Virus genome (UHGV): UHGV-0106422 | Length of the DNA stretch: 15,288 nt | Reading direction: 5' to 3' (one strand) | DNA from: a virus | Part shown: positions 6,990 to 12,536 of the stretch, in pieces | Numbering within the stretch: the stretch's first letter is position 1 | Layout of the letters: every line of letters begins with the position of its first letter | Notes under the pieces: model-generated | Seen by the model: the letters and a program-made list of their open reading frames with translations, nothing else | Databases searched by the model: none | Told to the model about the DNA's origin: nothing | Position numbers and translations under genes: made by a program

Positions 6990-7202
6990 CTACAACTCAT
7001 CACGAATCTGTGAGAGTGTGCTGATCGCCTGGTAATGACCGCGACGCTGCTCTTCTGTTTTGAACGCACGCATATCGTCTTTTATCGATGCGATTGCCTT
7101 ATTCAGAACTTCCACTTGCGCTTCTTTAATCGCCTGTTTGCGTGGCTTCTGACGCTTCTTAGGAAGGTCTCTTAAACACGCCGGAATGTATGTCTGAGTC
7201 AT
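6990..7202 (-). CDS. Hypothetical basic protein (70 aa), first gene of the leftward early operon
   Basis: AAGAGGA RBS; Lys/Arg-rich N-terminal segment (PKKRQKPRKQAIKEAQ). Position and charge are compatible with an N-like antiterminator or other nucleic-acid binder, but no sequence match recognised. Confidence 0.45.
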   Translation of the reverse strand: MTQTYIPACLRDLPKKRQKPRKQAIKEAQVEVLNKAIASIKDDMRAFKTEEQRRGHYQAISTLSQIRDEL

Positions 7203-7514
7203 AAAAAATCCTCTTGTGATTCAGCCCAGCCCACTCAACTTCGAATGGACTGGAATAAATCTGTTTGCGCTTCGCACCTCTCATCCCGCCAGTGTTGCCC
7301 GTTCCCACGCCTTTATCGCTCTCGCGAGGGGGTAGCCTCACACCGACCGGTTCGCCGCCGGTGATACGCCGCATTTTGTGCGTTGGGGTCTAAACAGGAT
7401 TGCCGAGTGCTGTTCCGACTTTGCATGTTGTTAAAAAGCAGGCGACTTGCTGTCCGCCGCTGGCTAACTTCGCTCAGCTGTCGATGTTTCGTTTCGATGA
7501 GCTGATTATTAACT

Positions 7515-7591
7515 AATGGTTATTTTCAGTCAATAACCATTGGTTAATTATTTTGCCATTGGTTATTAAGGTTATGATTTATTGGTTAATT
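7515..7591. promoter_or_regulatory. Array of ATTGGTTA(A/T)T motifs, including a perfect 10-bp inverted repeat (AATGGTTATT-7 bp-AATAACCATT)
   Basis: Inverted repeat at 7515-7524 / 7532-7541, with further direct copies at about 7542-7550, 7557-7566 and 7581-7590, in an AT-rich gap upstream of the 7652 ORF. Motif differs from the TTAACT half-sites of the cI/cro operators. Confidence 0.4.
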
Positions 7592-7651: not shown

Positions 7652-7870
7652 ATGGAACGAGATGAACGTGCAGATGAACGAATGGCCTTCATGGCTGGAG
7701 AGGTTGGGTGCGTAGTGTTCGAGCTGGTTTATAACGGAATTGAAATCAATAAGGACAACATTGTGGGATTTCTGGAAGGGAAGCGCAAAGCCGTAGGAAA
7801 CGTGATCCATAAGGGGATGCTACGGGATGCAGCTGAGATAGTCAGGAAGGGTAGTAAAGCTGTGAAGTAG
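7652..7870 (+). CDS. Hypothetical small protein (72 aa)
   Basis: Strong AGGAGG RBS 6 nt before ATG at 7652; the track's longer 7610 start lacks an RBS. Convergent with the cI-linked cassette and sharing its terminator region. Confidence 0.5.
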   Translation: MERDERADERMAFMAGEVGCVVFELVYNGIEINKDNIVGFLEGKRKAVGNVIHKGMLRDAAEIVRKGSKAVK

Positions 7871-7874
7871 GCAC

Positions 7875-7897
7875 AAAAAACCCGGCGCGGTGGCCGG
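7875..7897 (-). terminator. Intrinsic terminator closing the cI-linked cassette (possibly bidirectional)
   Basis: Plus strand AAAAAACCCGGCGCGGTGGCCGGG: GC-rich 6-bp stem CCCGGC/GCCGGG, followed on the minus-strand transcript by UUUUUU; sits 9 bp past the stop of the 7906..8838 gene. Confidence 0.6.
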
Positions 7898-7905
7898 GTG
7901 AGATA

Positions 7906-8838
7906 TTAAAGAACCGATTTAACAAGATGGTTTTTACGGTACAGACCTATGCGATCATTGTGAATCTCAGTAGTCTCCACTAAAAGAGAAACAATCTGTC
8001 CGACCTTGTGTTTTTTTTGTATTAAATCTAGCATTTCAATCGGATAGGAAGCCTTTAAATGTTCACCACCAACATCAAGCTCCAGCTTCCCATATTTGGA
8101 TAGAACGACCAGTTCGCCTGTAACCGTTTCAGTAATGGGAGGGGATGAAATGGTTGATGTAAGTCTACTCACCAAGTACTTAATTTTATTGGAGTCAATA
8201 GTTGCCACCTTGGTGCCATTACTAAATGGACCGGTCCAACTTGCATCAAATGTTAAGTTGTGTTTATCGCATTCCTCTACGATTCTCTTAAGGCTTACAG
8301 TGGAATTGTATCCAATTTCAGCGACGTGATTCATGAAGTTGTTGTCGTCATCGCTTAACAACAAATCGAATATGCCTTTTACAGCCTTGCTGGGTACTGT
8401 TTCTACTAATTCTGCTATTCCTGTAGAGAAGGTGACGCCCAATTTTGTAGACCCAGGGGATAAATCAGCCAGCCTGAGGTTTAAGGAGCTTTTCACGTCG
8501 TAGGGAACTTTTTTTGAGTCCTTGCCTGAGGCAATTTTGTGTGTTGCTCTTTGTATTAGCGCTGCAAGATTTGTTGAAATAGCCCCAAGCAGCTCTAAAG
8601 GAATAGAGCCAAAGTCAACCTCAGAGCCTTTCAGCCGCAGCTCAAAAAAATCGATAAGTGGGTGCCGACTATCTTGCTTTAATTTTTCGGCCTTCAAATC
8701 GCTCAGATGAGAATCCATGGAGCGATAAAGAAGCATGTCAGCAAAGGACCTGGTTTTGTTTTGCTTCATTGCATCGACTTCTTTTTGAATGAAATCAATG
8801 CGTTTATCGCAATTTTTAAACATTGATTTATCATTCAT
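7906..8838 (-). CDS. Hypothetical protein (310 aa), distal gene of the cI-linked AT-rich cassette
   Basis: Start ATG overlaps the stop of the upstream gene (ATGA, translational coupling); visibly AT-richer than flanking phage core genes; no recognisable catalytic motif or TM segment by eye. Confidence 0.7.
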   Translation of the reverse strand: MNDKSMFKNCDKRIDFIQKEVDAMKQNKTRSFADMLLYRSMDSHLSDLKAEKLKQDSRHPLIDFFELRLKGSEVDFGSIPLELLGAISTNLAALIQRATHKIASGKDSKKVPYDVKSSLNLRLADLSPGSTKLGVTFSTGIAELVETVPSKAVKGIFDLLLSDDDNNFMNHVAEIGYNSTVSLKRIVEECDKHNLTFDASWTGPFSNGTKVATIDSNKIKYLVSRLTSTISSPPITETVTGELVVLSKYGKLELDVGGEHLKASYPIEMLDLIQKKHKVGQIVSLLVETTEIHNDRIGLYRKNHLVKSVL

Positions 8839-9314
8839 AAAAAAATCCTCACTAACCCTTTCGGGTTTTCACTGCGATCAAAACCAAACCAACCGCGCCA
8901 GTAGCTACGCCAGTACTCATAATCATAGTTAGGGTCATCTAAATTCTTCATGAGTAGTAGGACATCAATTTTGTAGTTTTGTTTGATGTAGTTTCGGTCA
9001 AGCAAATTATCGACGCGGCCCCGAAGCATGACAGGTATTGAGTTTATATTGCTATAGTCACATACCAACAAAATATCAATATCATCAGGCTCTGGTTTAG
9101 ACGTGGTGTATGAACCATCAACCCATATTTCTGTAAAACAGCCATATTGAGCAGATAATTCTCGAATAGATTCGAGTAGCTGTATAAAATTACAGTATAG
9201 CATGCCTCGCCTGGATGATGAAGGAAAGCAATCGACACAATACGATTTTAATCCAGCTTCATCCATGTCATGGAACCCTGGCTCAAACAGGGGTGGGTAA
9301 TTAATTTTATCCAT
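8835..9314 (-). CDS. Small nucleotidyltransferase-fold-like protein (~159 aa from ATG 9314; track shows a GTG-initiated 175 aa form to 9362)
   Basis: Motif ...EIWVDGSYTTSKPEPDDIDILLVCD... fits the minimal Pol-beta-type NTase signature (G-S, about 9 residues, then D-x-D, followed by hydrophobics). AAGG 6 nt upstream of ATG 9314; none before the GTG. AT-rich. Confidence 0.6.
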   Translation of the reverse strand: MDKINYPPLFEPGFHDMDEAGLKSYCVDCFPSSSRRGMLYCNFIQLLESIRELSAQYGCFTEIWVDGSYTTSKPEPDDIDILLVCDYSNINSIPVMLRGRVDNLLDRNYIKQNYKIDVLLLMKNLDDPNYDYEYWRSYWRGWFGFDRSENPKGLVRIFL

Positions 9315-9491
9315 AAAAAACCTTGCTATACATTTGTTTTTTTTTATTAAAAATCTAACCACCGAAATGGTGACGGCAAGATGTTACATGGGGTTACAAT
9401 CAGCCAATACACCGCATTAAATAATTTTTTCACCAGCTATGCGCCGACCAGAACACCTTGCCCATCACCCAAACGTCTCATCAGGCCACCG

Positions 9492-10268
9492 CTACAGCAA
9501 TACCGAGTACCAGAAGAGACGGCCAATTATCTCGACATCATCAATATCAGCCTCTTCGTCTGGGTAGGAGTCGTTGTTGTAACTGCGGATGATCAGCTTC
9601 CCACCTGGCTTACGATACAGCTGTTTAATGCGCTTGAGTTGACCATTCCCGCCATCTGTCTGACCAATGGCATACAGTTTCCCATCAACTATGCGTTTGT
9701 TGTTCGTATCGACGGCTACAGTCGTACCATCCGGTATCACAGGTTCCATGCTGTCGCCAGTAGCAGGGAAACACAGGATGCCAGACCCATCTGTGTTAGC
9801 TCCAACGCGGCGGAGGGTTGCCTTTGAGAACCTGAGCTTAAAACCATTGTGATCTTCGCTGTGTACGCGTCCATCGCCACACGCAAATTCAATATCCTTA
9901 AGAAACGGCACTTCAACCTCGTCAGCAGGAAGCGGTGTGTTTTTATCCCAGGCGTCAACAGTTCCCCATTCAGATTCTGGAGGGATAGATGACTCCCTAC
10001 GCAGTTCAGGTTCGGGATCATTCCTTCCGTATTCAAGCCACTCAGGCCGTACCCCAAGCCAGCGGCTAAGGGCAAGGATATTGGTTTGGTCTGGTATCGC
10101 TGATGCGTTAAGCCATTTCCAGATCCCGGGCTCAGATACAGTAATTCCTTGGGACTTCATAGCCTCTCTGATCCTACCAGCCTGCCCACGACCACCAACG
10201 CCAGCATCAAGCAATGCAGCGCGAAGTCTTTTCGAGAATTCTTCTTTTAAATCGTCTTTTTTAACCAT
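9492..10268 (-). CDS. cI: Phage repressor CI (HTH N-terminal domain plus S24 LexA-like autopeptidase C-terminal domain)
   Basis: C-terminal GDSMEP motif is characteristic of the LexA/CI S24 self-cleaving family; divergent from the cro-like gene across an operator-rich gap. Confidence 0.9.
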   Translation of the reverse strand: MVKKDDLKEEFSKRLRAALLDAGVGGRGQAGRIREAMKSQGITVSEPGIWKWLNASAIPDQTNILALSRWLGVRPEWLEYGRNDPEPELRRESSIPPESEWGTVDAWDKNTPLPADEVEVPFLKDIEFACGDGRVHSEDHNGFKLRFSKATLRRVGANTDGSGILCFPATGDSMEPVIPDGTTVAVDTNNKRIVDGKLYAIGQTDGGNGQLKRIKQLYRKPGGKLIIRSYNNDSYPDEEADIDDVEIIGRLFWYSVLL

Positions 10269-10352
10269 TCGTTAATTATCAATTAGAGTTGACATAACTG
10301 TCAGTTAAGATATAACCTTAACTCGTAGTTAATATAGTTAACGGAAAACACT
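10269..10352. promoter_or_regulatory. Divergent immunity control region (OR-like operators with PR and PRM)
   Basis: Three palindromic sites with TTAACT/AGTTAA half-sites at about 10272-10286, 10295-10307 (TAACTGTCAGTTA) and 10318-10332 (TTAACTCGTAGTTAA), spaced 23 bp centre to centre. PR candidate: -35 TTGACA (10289-10294), 16-bp spacer, -10 TATAAC (10311-10316). On the minus strand GATAAT sits 6 nt before the cI ATG, suggesting a leaderless PRM transcript as in lambda. Confidence 0.7.
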
Positions 10353-10598
10353 ATGAACCCAATGCAATTTGCAATCGAAGCTGTAGGCGGTCAAACCGCT
10401 GCTGCTCGCCTGTGTGGCCTATCGAACGTTGCTATTCACAAGTGGGTGAAGAACGCGGCGCTGCCTCGTACTGAGTACACAGAGAAAACCAACTATTCGC
10501 AGCTTTTGGCTGACGCATCAAATGGGCAGTTTACGGCTGAATGGCTCCGTCAAGCAGCTAACCCTGACCGAATTAAACAAGATTCACATGCCGCCTGA
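10353..10598 (+). CDS. cro: Cro-like HTH regulator (81 aa)
   Basis: First gene rightward of the operators; HTH-like segment (QTAAARLCGLSNVAIHKWVK) typical of Cro/YdaS-type phage regulators. Confidence 0.7.
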   Translation: MNPMQFAIEAVGGQTAAARLCGLSNVAIHKWVKNAALPRTEYTEKTNYSQLLADASNGQFTAEWLRQAANPDRIKQDSHAA

Positions 10599-10638: not shown

Positions 10639-10860
10639 ATGGAGACCTTAACGACACGCAACAAAGCGGAGGCACGACGAATTGAGAGCTGGGTGCAGCG
10701 GCAAATCGCAGATCTTGGGACAACCAGGATCGCCGAAGTAGCTGGCGTGAACAAATCAACCGTAAGCCGGTGGCGGGAGAACCTGGTGCCGAACATGTCG
10801 CTGCTGCTCGCCATCCTGATTTCTAGCAGGGATGGAGTGAAGGGAGATTTTGAAGCATGA
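10639..10860 (+). CDS. cII: Transcriptional activator CII
   Basis: RIESWVQRQIADLGTTRIAEVAGVNKSTVSRWRENLVPNMSLLLAILI parallels recalled lambda CII (ALRIESALLNKIAMLGTEKTAEAVGVDKSQISRWKRDWIPKFSMLLAVL); canonical position after cro. Confidence 0.85.
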   Translation: METLTTRNKAEARRIESWVQRQIADLGTTRIAEVAGVNKSTVSRWRENLVPNMSLLLAILISSRDGVKGDFEA

Positions 10861-10941
10861 ACGCAGAAAGGGCAAAAGCCGCGGTGCTGGAACACCAACG
10901 GCTTTCAGGTGCAAAAACAGTGCGTAATTGCGGAGAACAGT

Positions 10942-11850
10942 ATGTCAAACACCGCTGAAATAATCAATTTCCCAAATAAAACCGAACAACCGGGAGGTCG
11001 TATGGCCGACCTGTCGAACGGGTATACCAAGGTCGCTAACGAGATCCAACAGCTTAAGCCTCGCCTGAGACTGTCAGGCCGGGAATGGCAATGTTTTGAG
11101 GCGGTGATCTGGCTTACCTACGGCTGGAACAAGAAACAGGACCGCGTGACAAATACGGTTATTGCCGAGCTTACGGGCCTGAGCGATACGCATGTATCGG
11201 ACGCGCTTAAGTCTCTCGCAGAACGCAAAATCATCTTTTCACAGAAGCAGGGCATGATGAAAATCGTCGGTGTAAACACTGACCTTTCAGCATGGATTTT
11301 AGACAAACCGGAAACGGGAAGAAAATTCCCGAAAACGGGAAAATCCTTCCCGAAATCAGGAATAACCTTCCCGAAAACGGTAGACACCCAATACAAGAAC
11401 AAGAACAGTATTAAAAGATCTTCGTCCGAGAATTCTGACGAATCCTCTGACGCACGTCTGAAGAAATTTTTATCAACTCATCCTGAAGCTGCGGTCTACA
11501 CACCATCCGGTGCGAAGTGGGGCTCTGCTGAAGACCTCGAGACAGCTAAGTGGATTTCCTCCAGGGTGAAGCTGATTAACCCAACCTGCAAAGCCCCGGA
11601 CATGACCTCCTGGTCTAACACTGTTCGCCTGATGCGCCAGATAGACAACCGGTCGCACCAGGACATCTGCGCGCTGTATGACTGGGCTAGCAAACACCAC
11701 TTCTGGCAGACCAACATCCTGAGTCCCGAAAGCCTGCGTAAGCAGTGGGACAAGCTGACAATGCAGCGTAACGCCGGAGGTGAGCAGCGCGCTGTCAAGC
11801 CAGATCTGGACTTCAACAACACTGACTGGGCCTATGGGGTGATCCGATGA
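10942..11850 (+). CDS. O: Replication initiator protein O
   Basis: From ATG 10942 (GGAGAA RBS): MSNTAEIINFP...LSGREWQCFEAVIWLTYGWNKKQDR... matches the lambda O N-terminal DNA-binding domain (MTNTAKILNF...LTKRQFKVLLAILRKTYGWNKPMDR); lambda-like proline/lysine-rich linker; iterons inside the gene. The track start at 10909 is an unsupported upstream extension. Confidence 0.9.
   Translation: MSNTAEIINFPNKTEQPGGRMADLSNGYTKVANEIQQLKPRLRLSGREWQCFEAVIWLTYGWNKKQDRVTNTVIAELTGLSDTHVSDALKSLAERKIIFSQKQGMMKIVGVNTDLSAWILDKPETGRKFPKTGKSFPKSGITFPKTVDTQYKNKNSIKRSSSENSDESSDARLKKFLSTHPEAAVYTPSGAKWGSAEDLETAKWISSRVKLINPTCKAPDMTSWSNTVRLMRQIDNRSHQDICALYDWASKHHFWQTNILSPESLRKQWDKLTMQRNAGGEQRAVKPDLDFNNTDWAYGVIR
11305..11425. 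repeat. Origin of replication: iteron array plus AT-rich unwinding region inside the O gene
   Basis: Palindromic iterons of the form TTCCCGAAAACGGGAA at about 11308, 11326, 11347 and 11368 (21-bp periodicity), followed by the A/T-rich stretch ACAAGAACAAGAACAGTATTAAAAGATC. Same architecture as ori-lambda within O. Confidence 0.7.
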
Positions 11851-12536
11851 AATCTCTTGCAGAGCAGATGCGTAACCACGACCGCGAGCAGATGAGCCGC
11901 ATGGCCCATAACCTGCCAGAGCAGTACCAGGAGTGCGCGCCGGTCGAGCAGGTGGCGCAGGTATTCAACAAGCTGTTCAACGAGCTGCGCGCCGCGTTCC
12001 CGGCCAGCATGGCGAACTTCCGCACCCAGGAAGACCTGAACGAATTCCGCCGTCAGTGGCTGCTGGCGTTTCAGGAGAACGGGATCCACACCATGGCTCA
12101 GGTCGATGCCGGCATGCGCATTGCCCGCCGCCAGGAGCGCCCATTCCTGCCGTCGCCGGGCCAGTTCGTCGCCTGGTGCAAGCAGAGCGGCGGCGCGCTG
12201 GGCGTCAACGTTGACCAGGTGATCGCCGAATACTGGGACTGGCGTAACCGCTCGTTCGAATTCATCTCCAGCGAGCAATTTCCATGGTCGCAGCCGGTCA
12301 TGTACCACATTTGCGTAGAATTGCGCCACCGCAGCACCGAGCGCCAGTTAACGCATGGTGAACTGGCACGCGAGGCAGGCGATCTGCTGGACATGTGGGA
12401 AAGGCGCGTCACCGAGGGTAAGCCAGTGCCGCCGGTACGCCGGGCTATTGCCGCACCAGCTGCCGAGCAAGGGCCGACGCCGATCCAGCTGCTGCTGGCC
12501 AAGTACAACCGCAACAAGTCGAACGGGATGGTGTGA
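11847..12536 (+). CDS. P: Replication protein P (helicase loader)
   Basis: MKSLAEQMRNHDREQMSRMAHNLPEQY...RPFLPSPGQFVAWCKQ is near-collinear with recalled lambda P (MKNIAAQMVNFDREQMRRIANNMPEQY...RPFLPSPGQFVAWCRE); ATGA overlap with the O stop. Confidence 0.9.
   Translation: MKSLAEQMRNHDREQMSRMAHNLPEQYQECAPVEQVAQVFNKLFNELRAAFPASMANFRTQEDLNEFRRQWLLAFQENGIHTMAQVDAGMRIARRQERPFLPSPGQFVAWCKQSGGALGVNVDQVIAEYWDWRNRSFEFISSEQFPWSQPVMYHICVELRHRSTERQLTHGELAREAGDLLDMWERRVTEGKPVPPVRRAIAAPAAEQGPTPIQLLLAKYNRNKSNGMV

Follow-up and report, generated by a model that had tools for sequence, protein, structure and literature searches.

The 15,288-nucleotide sequence analysed here (UHGV virus genome UHGV-0106422, hereafter the window) is a segment of a lambdoid prophage resembling phi80, HK225 and mEp237; HK225 is 96% identical to it across 74% of its length. 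The immunity module is unlike that of HK225, which has no more of it in common than the 3' half of cI. A repressor gene of the cI type (9492-10268, minus strand, 258 aa, Peptidase_S24 in Pfam) and a gene for a Cro-like protein (10353-10598, plus strand, 81 aa, of the YdaS type with a helix-turn-helix, HTH) diverge from an 84-bp gap at 10269-10352. Further downstream lie cII (10639-10860, Phage_CII), O (10909-11850, Phage_rep_O) and P (11847-12536, Phage_lambda_P), all assigned with Pfam. In the initial annotation of this sequence, the gap was read as a prophage switch at cI and cro in which repressor palindromes overlap a rightward promoter, and our results agree with that reading: this is a divergent control region of the lambdoid kind. 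We consider it probable that 10261-10342 is the right operator (OR) of the immunity module and that it works according to the switch model set out below.

Relatives of the module were found by scanning contigs with an alignment of the cI N-terminal domain, which yielded 47 loci (3 in genome contigs and 44 in viral contigs) with 65-100% identity in that domain. The final alignment comprised 50 regions, namely the window and 49 related loci, each including 120 nt of both flanking genes, and these represent 26 distinct OR sequences. Close E. coli prophages have an almost identical gap and are hence uninformative for conservation, while a protein-level search that used just the N-terminal domain of cI yielded fragments for the most part, which were left out of the comparison. 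Codon third positions in cI and cro, with a mean pairwise difference of 0.48-0.51, served as the neutral yardstick. The module is rare in E. coli, being present in 26 of 5,426 complete genomes, and is common in Enterobacterales other than E. coli; it was recorded in Enterobacter, Citrobacter, Salmonella and Klebsiella as well as in Stx1-converting Shigella/E. coli phages.

Three predicted operator sites of 15 bp, sharing the form wTAACy-N3-rGTTAw, lie at OR. Site A' (OR3-like, 10261-10275, TTAACCATTCGTTAA) is centred on the A of the cI ATG (10268); the middle site, B (10294-10308, ATAACTGTCAGTTAA), deviates from the palindrome by one mismatch; and the cro-proximal, OR1-like site C (10318-10332, TTAACTCGTAGTTAA) is a perfect palindrome. 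The centres of B (10301) and C (10325) are 24 bp apart, and A' is separated from B by 33 bp. Two further sites, OL1 (7509-7523, TTAACTAATGGTTAT) and OL2 (7533-7547, ATAACCATTGGTTAA), likewise with a 24-bp spacing, are found 2.7 kb left of OR over a leftward promoter, PL (7505-7533; TTGACT, a 17-bp spacer and AATAAT, matching 10/12 in the promoter scan), both hexamers of which are conserved in relatives. OL1 covers the spacer and -10 of PL, and OL2 abuts its -35. By its sequence, 7505-7547 is the expected left operator and promoter (OL/PL), a second operator set built of the same half-sites as OR. The OL pair was found at the 24-bp distance in 48 of the 49 related loci, and the sequence of the remaining one (L018) ends ahead of the OL region. 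The distance of OL beyond cI varies among relatives, because differing cargo genes lie between the two.

Are these sites more frequent than expected from base composition? When the palindrome pattern of the initial annotation (half-sites TTAACT/AGTTAA) was searched with at most one mismatch, B and C were the only matches in 15,288 bp (expected 0.02; none of 200 shuffles reached two). A', OL1 and OL2 were first met in a looser-stringency pattern search of the window. Allowing at most one mismatch to wTAACyNNNrGTTAw gave five matches in the whole window, at A', B, C, OL1 and OL2, where 0.25 were expected and none of 200 shuffles reached five. Moreover, a matrix was derived from the OL sites of relatives alone, leaving out those of the window itself, and used to score 15,270 window positions. 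The six best positions were OL2, OL1, A' (18.4 bits), C (14.3 bits), 7552-7566 (13.2 bits) and B (10.0 bits), so that A' ranked third of 15,270.

The positions of the sites relative to the repressor gene are fixed. All five sites were scored in 48 loci, and in each of these the OR centres fall at 0, -33/-32 and -57/-56 relative to the cI ATG (at most two mismatches); with at most one mismatch A' is in place in all related loci listed except L052, which carries a second mismatch (CATTAA). The mean pairwise difference among the 26 distinct OR sequences is 0-0.07 in the half-sites of A', B and C, and 10 of the 12 half-site positions of B and 11 of the 12 of C are invariant. In the non-coding right half of A', 4 of 6 positions are invariant: within its GTTAA (10271-10275), positions 10272-10275 do not vary and 10271 is G in 25 of the 26 sequences. 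The synonymous third position of the Val codon in A' (10263) is also invariant, a property shared by only 2 of the 39 neighbouring third positions.

The repressor itself carries a Peptidase_S24 domain (1.2e-15) and matches the transcriptional repressor family PHROG 4 (2.8e-43). Pfam found no HTH in its N-terminal 120 residues, and a PDB sequence search with cI gave no match; a fold comparison was used instead. The AlphaFold (AF2) model, built with 40 homologues (pLDDT, the predicted local distance difference test score, of 82), consists of five N-terminal helices and a beta-rich S24 C-terminal domain. With Foldseek, this model matched lambda repressor (3bdn), a lambda-186 hybrid and LexA, and the N-terminal domain matched TP901-1 CI, P22 c2 and lambda fragments. 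The N-terminal domain is thus modelled as a standard five-helix, lambda-repressor-like HTH. Its recognition helix 3, EPGIWKW, is invariant in 24 distinct cI N-terminal domains, in step with the invariant half-sites. Cleavage and catalytic motifs are represented by Cys130-Gly131, Ser173 in GDSM, and Lys215. The Cro-like protein reaches 29.9 bits with the Pfam family YdaS_toxin, just below the cut-off of 30, and belongs to PHROG 35; RefSeq annotates an identical gene as a YdaS family HTH protein, and its HTH is conserved among relatives.

Two promoters can be read in the gap. The rightward one, PR, has the -35 hexamer TTGACA (10289-10294, plus strand), which is invariant in 26/26 sequences (pairwise difference 0.00), and a -10 region at 10311-10318 (plus strand), in which TATAAC (10311-10316, 16-bp spacer) overlaps TAACCT (10313-10318, 18-bp spacer). 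The promoter annotated initially, TTGACA-16-TATAAC, is present, its -35 is invariant and it does overlap the palindromes, but TATAAC is not the conserved -10 hexamer. Its critical second position is A, T or G among relatives, and the sequence type of the window has C in place of the key T at the sixth position, which accounts for the absence of TATAAC from the promoter-scan list. All 26 sequences have T at 10313, A at 10314 and T at 10318 (TAnnnT), and 10312 and 10316 vary. The conserved -10 may therefore be 10313-10318 rather than TATAAC; use of this hexamer would place the PR start at about G10325, the exact centre of C. With either -10, the PR spacer is taken up by B and the start (~10323-10325) lies within C. 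The cro leader beyond has a mean pairwise difference of 0.43.

On the minus strand, the putative -10 of the promoter for repressor maintenance (PRM) is GATAAT (10275-10280, read from 10280 to 10275), and it stands 6 nt before the cI ATG, just as annotated. It occurs as GATAAT or GATACT at this constant distance in 26/26 sequences, with a pairwise difference of 0.08. The putative -35, CTGACA (10299-10304), lies 18 bp from GATAAT (17 bp in distant relatives) and the pair matches 10/12 in the promoter scan. This -35 is contained in B and in the PR spacer, and the PR -35 in turn lies inside the PRM spacer, with the predicted start points of the two promoters 55-57 bp apart. B has GTC at its centre in 25 of 27 site combinations, whereas the OL centres vary freely among 7-8 different triplets. 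The centre of B is therefore conserved beyond the need of an operator, which indicates an extra function and fits a -35 hexamer. Taken with these hexamers, it is likely that the cI mRNA is leaderless and starts at A10268. A leaderless repressor mRNA has been mapped in lambda. Mapped 5' ends likewise show leaderless repressor mRNAs for PaaR2 of CP-933P, which has a YdaS-type Cro (PMC8630535), and for cI of PY54 (PMC4488713).

In the proposed switch, cI dimers would fill C and B cooperatively, at the 24-bp spacing of lambda OR1-OR2, and would thereby block PR, with B in its spacer and C over its start point; OL1 and OL2 would block PL likewise. The repressor would be made from the leaderless transcript starting at A10268, under the promoter CTGACA-18-GATAAT. 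Since the cores of PR and PRM are interdigitated and their starts are only 55-57 bp apart, we infer that two polymerases exclude each other, so that silencing of PR, for example through C, would free PRM. With repressor at B, over the PRM -35, and at A', over +1, cI synthesis would be capped, and A' is predicted to shut off the cI promoter. Cro would act at the same sites, probably at A' first, shutting off cI, and RecA-stimulated self-cleavage of cI would induce the prophage. If B is filled together with C, PRM might stay active either through promoter competition with differential occupancy or through co-binding on opposite faces of the DNA.

How, then, could the repressor sustain its own synthesis? 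The geometry of activation from lambda OR2 is not found here: the distance from the ATG to the centre of B is 33 bp (32 bp in some relatives), and B covers the putative -35. The open reading frame (ORF) cannot start ahead of the ATG at 10268, so no cI promoter can put B at -42, and a transcript start further upstream would bring B closer still. Moreover, the interdigitation of the PR and PRM cores excludes lambda-style activation of PRM from B. We tentatively entertain the possibility that the autoregulatory logic as a whole is unlike that of lambda, with interdigitated promoters whose start points sit at the centres of the outer operators (10268 in A' and 10325 in C). Under such a logic, cI would activate PRM indirectly, by removing the competition from PR and not through sigma contact from -42; alternatively, cI and polymerase would occupy B together from opposite faces of the DNA, with cI flanking the -35. 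In lambda, CII flanks the -35 on the opposite DNA face at PRE, the promoter for repressor establishment. A parallel for the indirect route is the P22 immI region, where the divergent promoters Pant and Pmnt are too close for simultaneous polymerases and the repressor of the strong promoter indirectly activates the weak one; P22 immI uses the ribbon-helix-helix repressors Mnt and Arc, and the analogy to PR/PRM is mechanistic only. With both routes, B and A' would provide negative feedback. If this different logic is true, the same design would govern the Shigella Stx1 phages 75/02 and POCJ13.

Several points weigh against the proposed operator and switch. A repressor bound to B would cover the predicted PRM -35, which leaves the synthesis of cI in a lysogen unexplained if B and C are filled together. 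The binding of Cro to A', B and C is assumed by analogy. The -10 of PR is ambiguous, as TATAAC has no T at its sixth position and TAACCT matches at 3/6 positions only. A' encodes Met-Val-Lys in its left half and adjoins the PRM -10 with its right half, so part of the conservation of A' has other causes. At the inner base of the right half of A', every relative has a pyrimidine, either C or T, as opposed to a purine in B, C, OL1 and OL2. Finally, a full-text literature search with four operator 15-mers returned no paper.

The position of the putative -35 within B bears on the start of cI: a promoter would seem to defeat itself if its -35 lay in an operator on which the repression of PR depends. 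One could accordingly suppose that cI is not leaderless and is transcribed from a weak, unrecognised leftward promoter further to the right, or from a cII-dependent establishment promoter only, with CTGACA kept as the centre of an operator and TATC as a flank of A'. We think this unlikely. CTGACA/GATAAT is the sole promoter-like match on the minus strand near OR. In 26/26 sequences the two hexamers and the 6-nt distance are preserved, whereas the intervening spacer drifts and varies in length by 1 bp. No Shine-Dalgarno sequence precedes the cI ATG in the window or in any of the 26 distinct sequences, and the freedom of the OL centres to vary shows that an operator centre alone does not demand GTC. 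As for other promoters, a leftward one placing C at -42 (start near 10283) was considered and rejected: the position needed for its -10 is occupied by the invariant PR -35, and there is no -10-like hexamer. There is no enrichment of lambda-type CII boxes (TTGC-N6-TTGC) and no such box close to cro/cII, and no PRE was placed.

Another question is whether A' is an operator at all. The features of A' just listed, its coding left half and its inner C/T in every relative, would also be expected if OR were bipartite, with B and C alone binding the repressor and the likeness of A' arising only from its Met-Val-Lys codons together with promoter or start constraints; OR would then have no OR3 equivalent, and OL likewise has two strong sites only. 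We judge this quite unlikely. A matrix that had learned from OL sites alone scored A' above both B and C, and the conserved GTTAA at 10271-10275 falls between -10 and +1, a stretch normally unconstrained by promoters. The synonymous position 10263 is invariant too, against the low share of invariant third positions in its neighbourhood.

If A' is the third site, the palindrome assigned to that role in the initial annotation has to be given up. There, three palindromes with a 23-bp period were described (10272-10286, 10294-10308 and 10318-10332). Read as an even, lambda-like OR3-OR2-OR1 array, they would have the cI-proximal palindrome over the PRM -10 and the middle site activating PRM as lambda OR2 does. 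The second and third of these are B and C and are upheld. The first, TTAATTATCAATTAG (centre 10279), has three mismatches to the palindrome, that is, a 12/15 match, and overlaps GATAAT, and the actual spacings of the three, 22 and 24 bp, resemble the 23 and 24 bp of lambda; a uniform 23-bp period is found neither among them nor among the conserved sites, which are 33 and 24 bp apart. None of the six columns in its right half (10281-10286) is invariant, the pairwise difference there is 0.38 and relatives show a 1-bp indel, and with the OL-trained matrix the whole palindrome scores 1.7 bits, which is background, in the range of random matches in the window. The conserved left part is accounted for by the A' half-site and the PRM -10 hexamer, and the right part is unconstrained spacer; TTAATTATCAATTAG was rejected as an operator. 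Furthermore, cI has a single possible start, and the centre of the middle site is at -33 from it instead of -42. An even lambda-like array is on these grounds highly improbable, and the third operator is A', since both conservation and the OL-matrix score favour 10261-10275 over 10272-10286. A palindrome that is convincing in a single sequence can thus be spurious, and comparison with relatives shifted the third operator by 11 bp. That all the palindromes are chance products of an AT-rich intergenic region, in which TTAA-type words are common, is refuted by the shuffles and by the conservation of their positions in relatives.

Besides the full sites, single half-sites occur at both operators. 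A lone AGTTAAC (10336-10342) lies 9 bp past the right half of C and is conserved as rGyTAAy, with 10339-10341 invariant, and three lone rGTTAw half-sites are found to the right of OL2 (7561-7566, 7570-7575 and 7584-7589). The lone half-sites at 10336-10342 and to the right of OL2 might represent extra contacts for Cro or cI. An everted palindrome, GTTAA-N5-TTAAC (10328-10342), was tried as a fourth full site at OR and rejected: its outer element is TTAAT in relatives, and the rGTTAA reading alone is conserved. The matrix match at 7552-7566 (TTTGCCATTGGTTAT) is a possible weak OL3, whose right half is conserved and whose left half varies among relatives. A 17-pair 'terminator-like' hairpin at 7508-7548, reported by the promoter/terminator scan, is not a terminator and corresponds to the inverted OL1/OL2 pair.

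The surroundings of the two operators hold several further features. Downstream of PL on the minus strand, the first ORFs encode 71 aa (7159-7374, no PHROG or PADLOC match) and 70 aa (6990-7202, phrog_5305); neither product is recognisable as an N-type antiterminator, and nutL was not sought. A plus-strand gene with a strong Shine-Dalgarno sequence (7652-7870, 72 aa, phrog_3975) lies between OL and the cargo and opposes the PL and cI transcription units. It is followed by a GC-rich hairpin (7880-7899) with A- and T-runs on opposite flanks, which the scan lists for the minus strand only and which could terminate transcription in both directions. The rexAB position between cI and OL (7906-9362, minus strand) is occupied by two genes, for a 175-aa DUF6932 protein and a 310-aa protein, which match PDC-M63A (2.4e-41) and PDC-M63B (7.5e-45), a candidate defence pair in PADLOC. 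Relatives have different genes at this place, either one for a YafO-family toxin next to a hypothetical gene or further unrelated ones, whereas their OR and OL are unchanged. Just past the cI stop, 56 bp (9434-9489) are 94.6% identical to the 3' end of cI and the following sequence in lambda, 434 and SfI; this looks like the relic of a conserved recombination junction for the swapping of immunity modules.

The outcome is a corrected operator map, with the consensus wTAACy-N3-rGTTAw, five predicted sites and three promoters; in our literature search these operators were not found described. The map also concerns the annotation of repressors. Pfam recognises no HTH in this repressor, and domain-based surveys would misclassify its family as having no DNA-binding domain, while the model presented here gives it a normal HTH and clear predicted targets. 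A survey of Stx phages reported one CI clade without a recognisable (Pfam) HTH and of 'unknown' regulatory function (bioRxiv 10.1101/2021.11.24.469858). As a candidate assignment, this clade is probably of the present N-terminal-domain type.

The named phages nearest to the window by the cI N-terminal domain are 75/02 Stx, POCJ13 and phiSTEC1589-Stx1c, at 69% identity, with 80% identity of Cro. Their OR and OL half-sites are the same and in the same positions, and the recognition helix EPGIWKW is identical. They differ from the window in their Eru4-type replication module and in carrying stx1, in the PR -10 region and leader, and in one base of the right half of B (AGCTAA). Phages 75/02 and POCJ13 are classed as Stx1/Eru4 in the Stx-phage survey (bioRxiv 10.1101/2021.11.24.469858), and our literature search found no description of the operators of 75/02, POCJ13 or phiSTEC1589-Stx1c. 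The gap had been said to define the immunity specificity of this prophage; the operators do define an immunity type, but one that is not unique, as its family includes Stx1 phages. Lysogens of this prophage may be immune to Stx1 phages of the 75/02 and POCJ13 type, and Stx1 induction in these two phages would depend on the compact switch. Heteroimmunity with 75/02 and POCJ13 through other contacts is possible, the N-terminal domain being only 69% identical.

A comparison of half-sites with known immunity groups, proposed in the initial annotation, thus finds them shared with 75/02 and POCJ13 but not with phi80, the phage with the closest experimentally characterised cI (N-terminal domain 46% identical over residues 34-123). 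Three OR and three OL sites are annotated in phi80, and the OR spacings there are also 33 and 24 bp, but the order of the two intervals relative to cI is reversed. The phi80 operators are 19 bp long and of another sequence (..AACA..TGTTGATT), and phi80 CI sites such as AATTAACATGGTGTTGATT do not fit wTAACy-N3-rGTTAw. Furthermore, the -10 of phi80 pRM lies ~20 bp before cI, which by annotation is not leaderless, and its -35 merely abuts OR2.

The PaaR2/YdaS/YdaT system of the cryptic prophage CP-933P (PMC8630535) is likewise a lambdoid immunity region with a YdaS-type protein as Cro, related operators at a PL-like promoter and accessory genes on the repressor operon, and its repressor mRNA was found to be leaderless by 5' RACE (rapid amplification of cDNA ends). 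It differs in that PaaR2 (15 kDa) lacks an S24 domain and in its 97-bp gap, which holds four 18-bp repeats with the consensus GTTTAGTAA (PMC8630535). The window does not group with this switch: the YdaS_toxin match of its Cro-like protein stays under the cut-off, and its operator consensus differs from GTTTAGTAA. A search for distant DNA similarity found none to CP-933P, so the operators cannot be aligned.

With lambda, the module shares the divergent genes for cI (HTH and S24) and cro, three related palindromes in the gap, related sites at PL, and cII, O and P downstream; the promoter-proximal pair is 24 bp apart at both OR and OL, as is lambda OR1-OR2 at 24 bp, and the cI mRNA is probably leaderless. 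A PRM transcript that is leaderless 'as in lambda' had been suggested, and this is plausible given the hexamers, their distance from the ATG and the absence of a Shine-Dalgarno sequence, but the lambda geometry fails: measured from the cI ATG, the sites are centred at 0, -33 and -57, compared with -19, -42 and -66 for lambda OR3, OR2 and OR1. The sites are 15 bp long (17 bp in lambda) and the gap is 84 bp (100 bp in lambda). The third site lies on +1 instead of over the PRM core, the putative PRM -35 is placed inside the middle operator, the Cro-like protein is of the YdaS type, and OL has two strong sites only. The start points of PR and PRM are ~83 bp apart in lambda, as against ~55-57 bp predicted here. 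This is a known kind of switch in a layout more compact than that of lambda.

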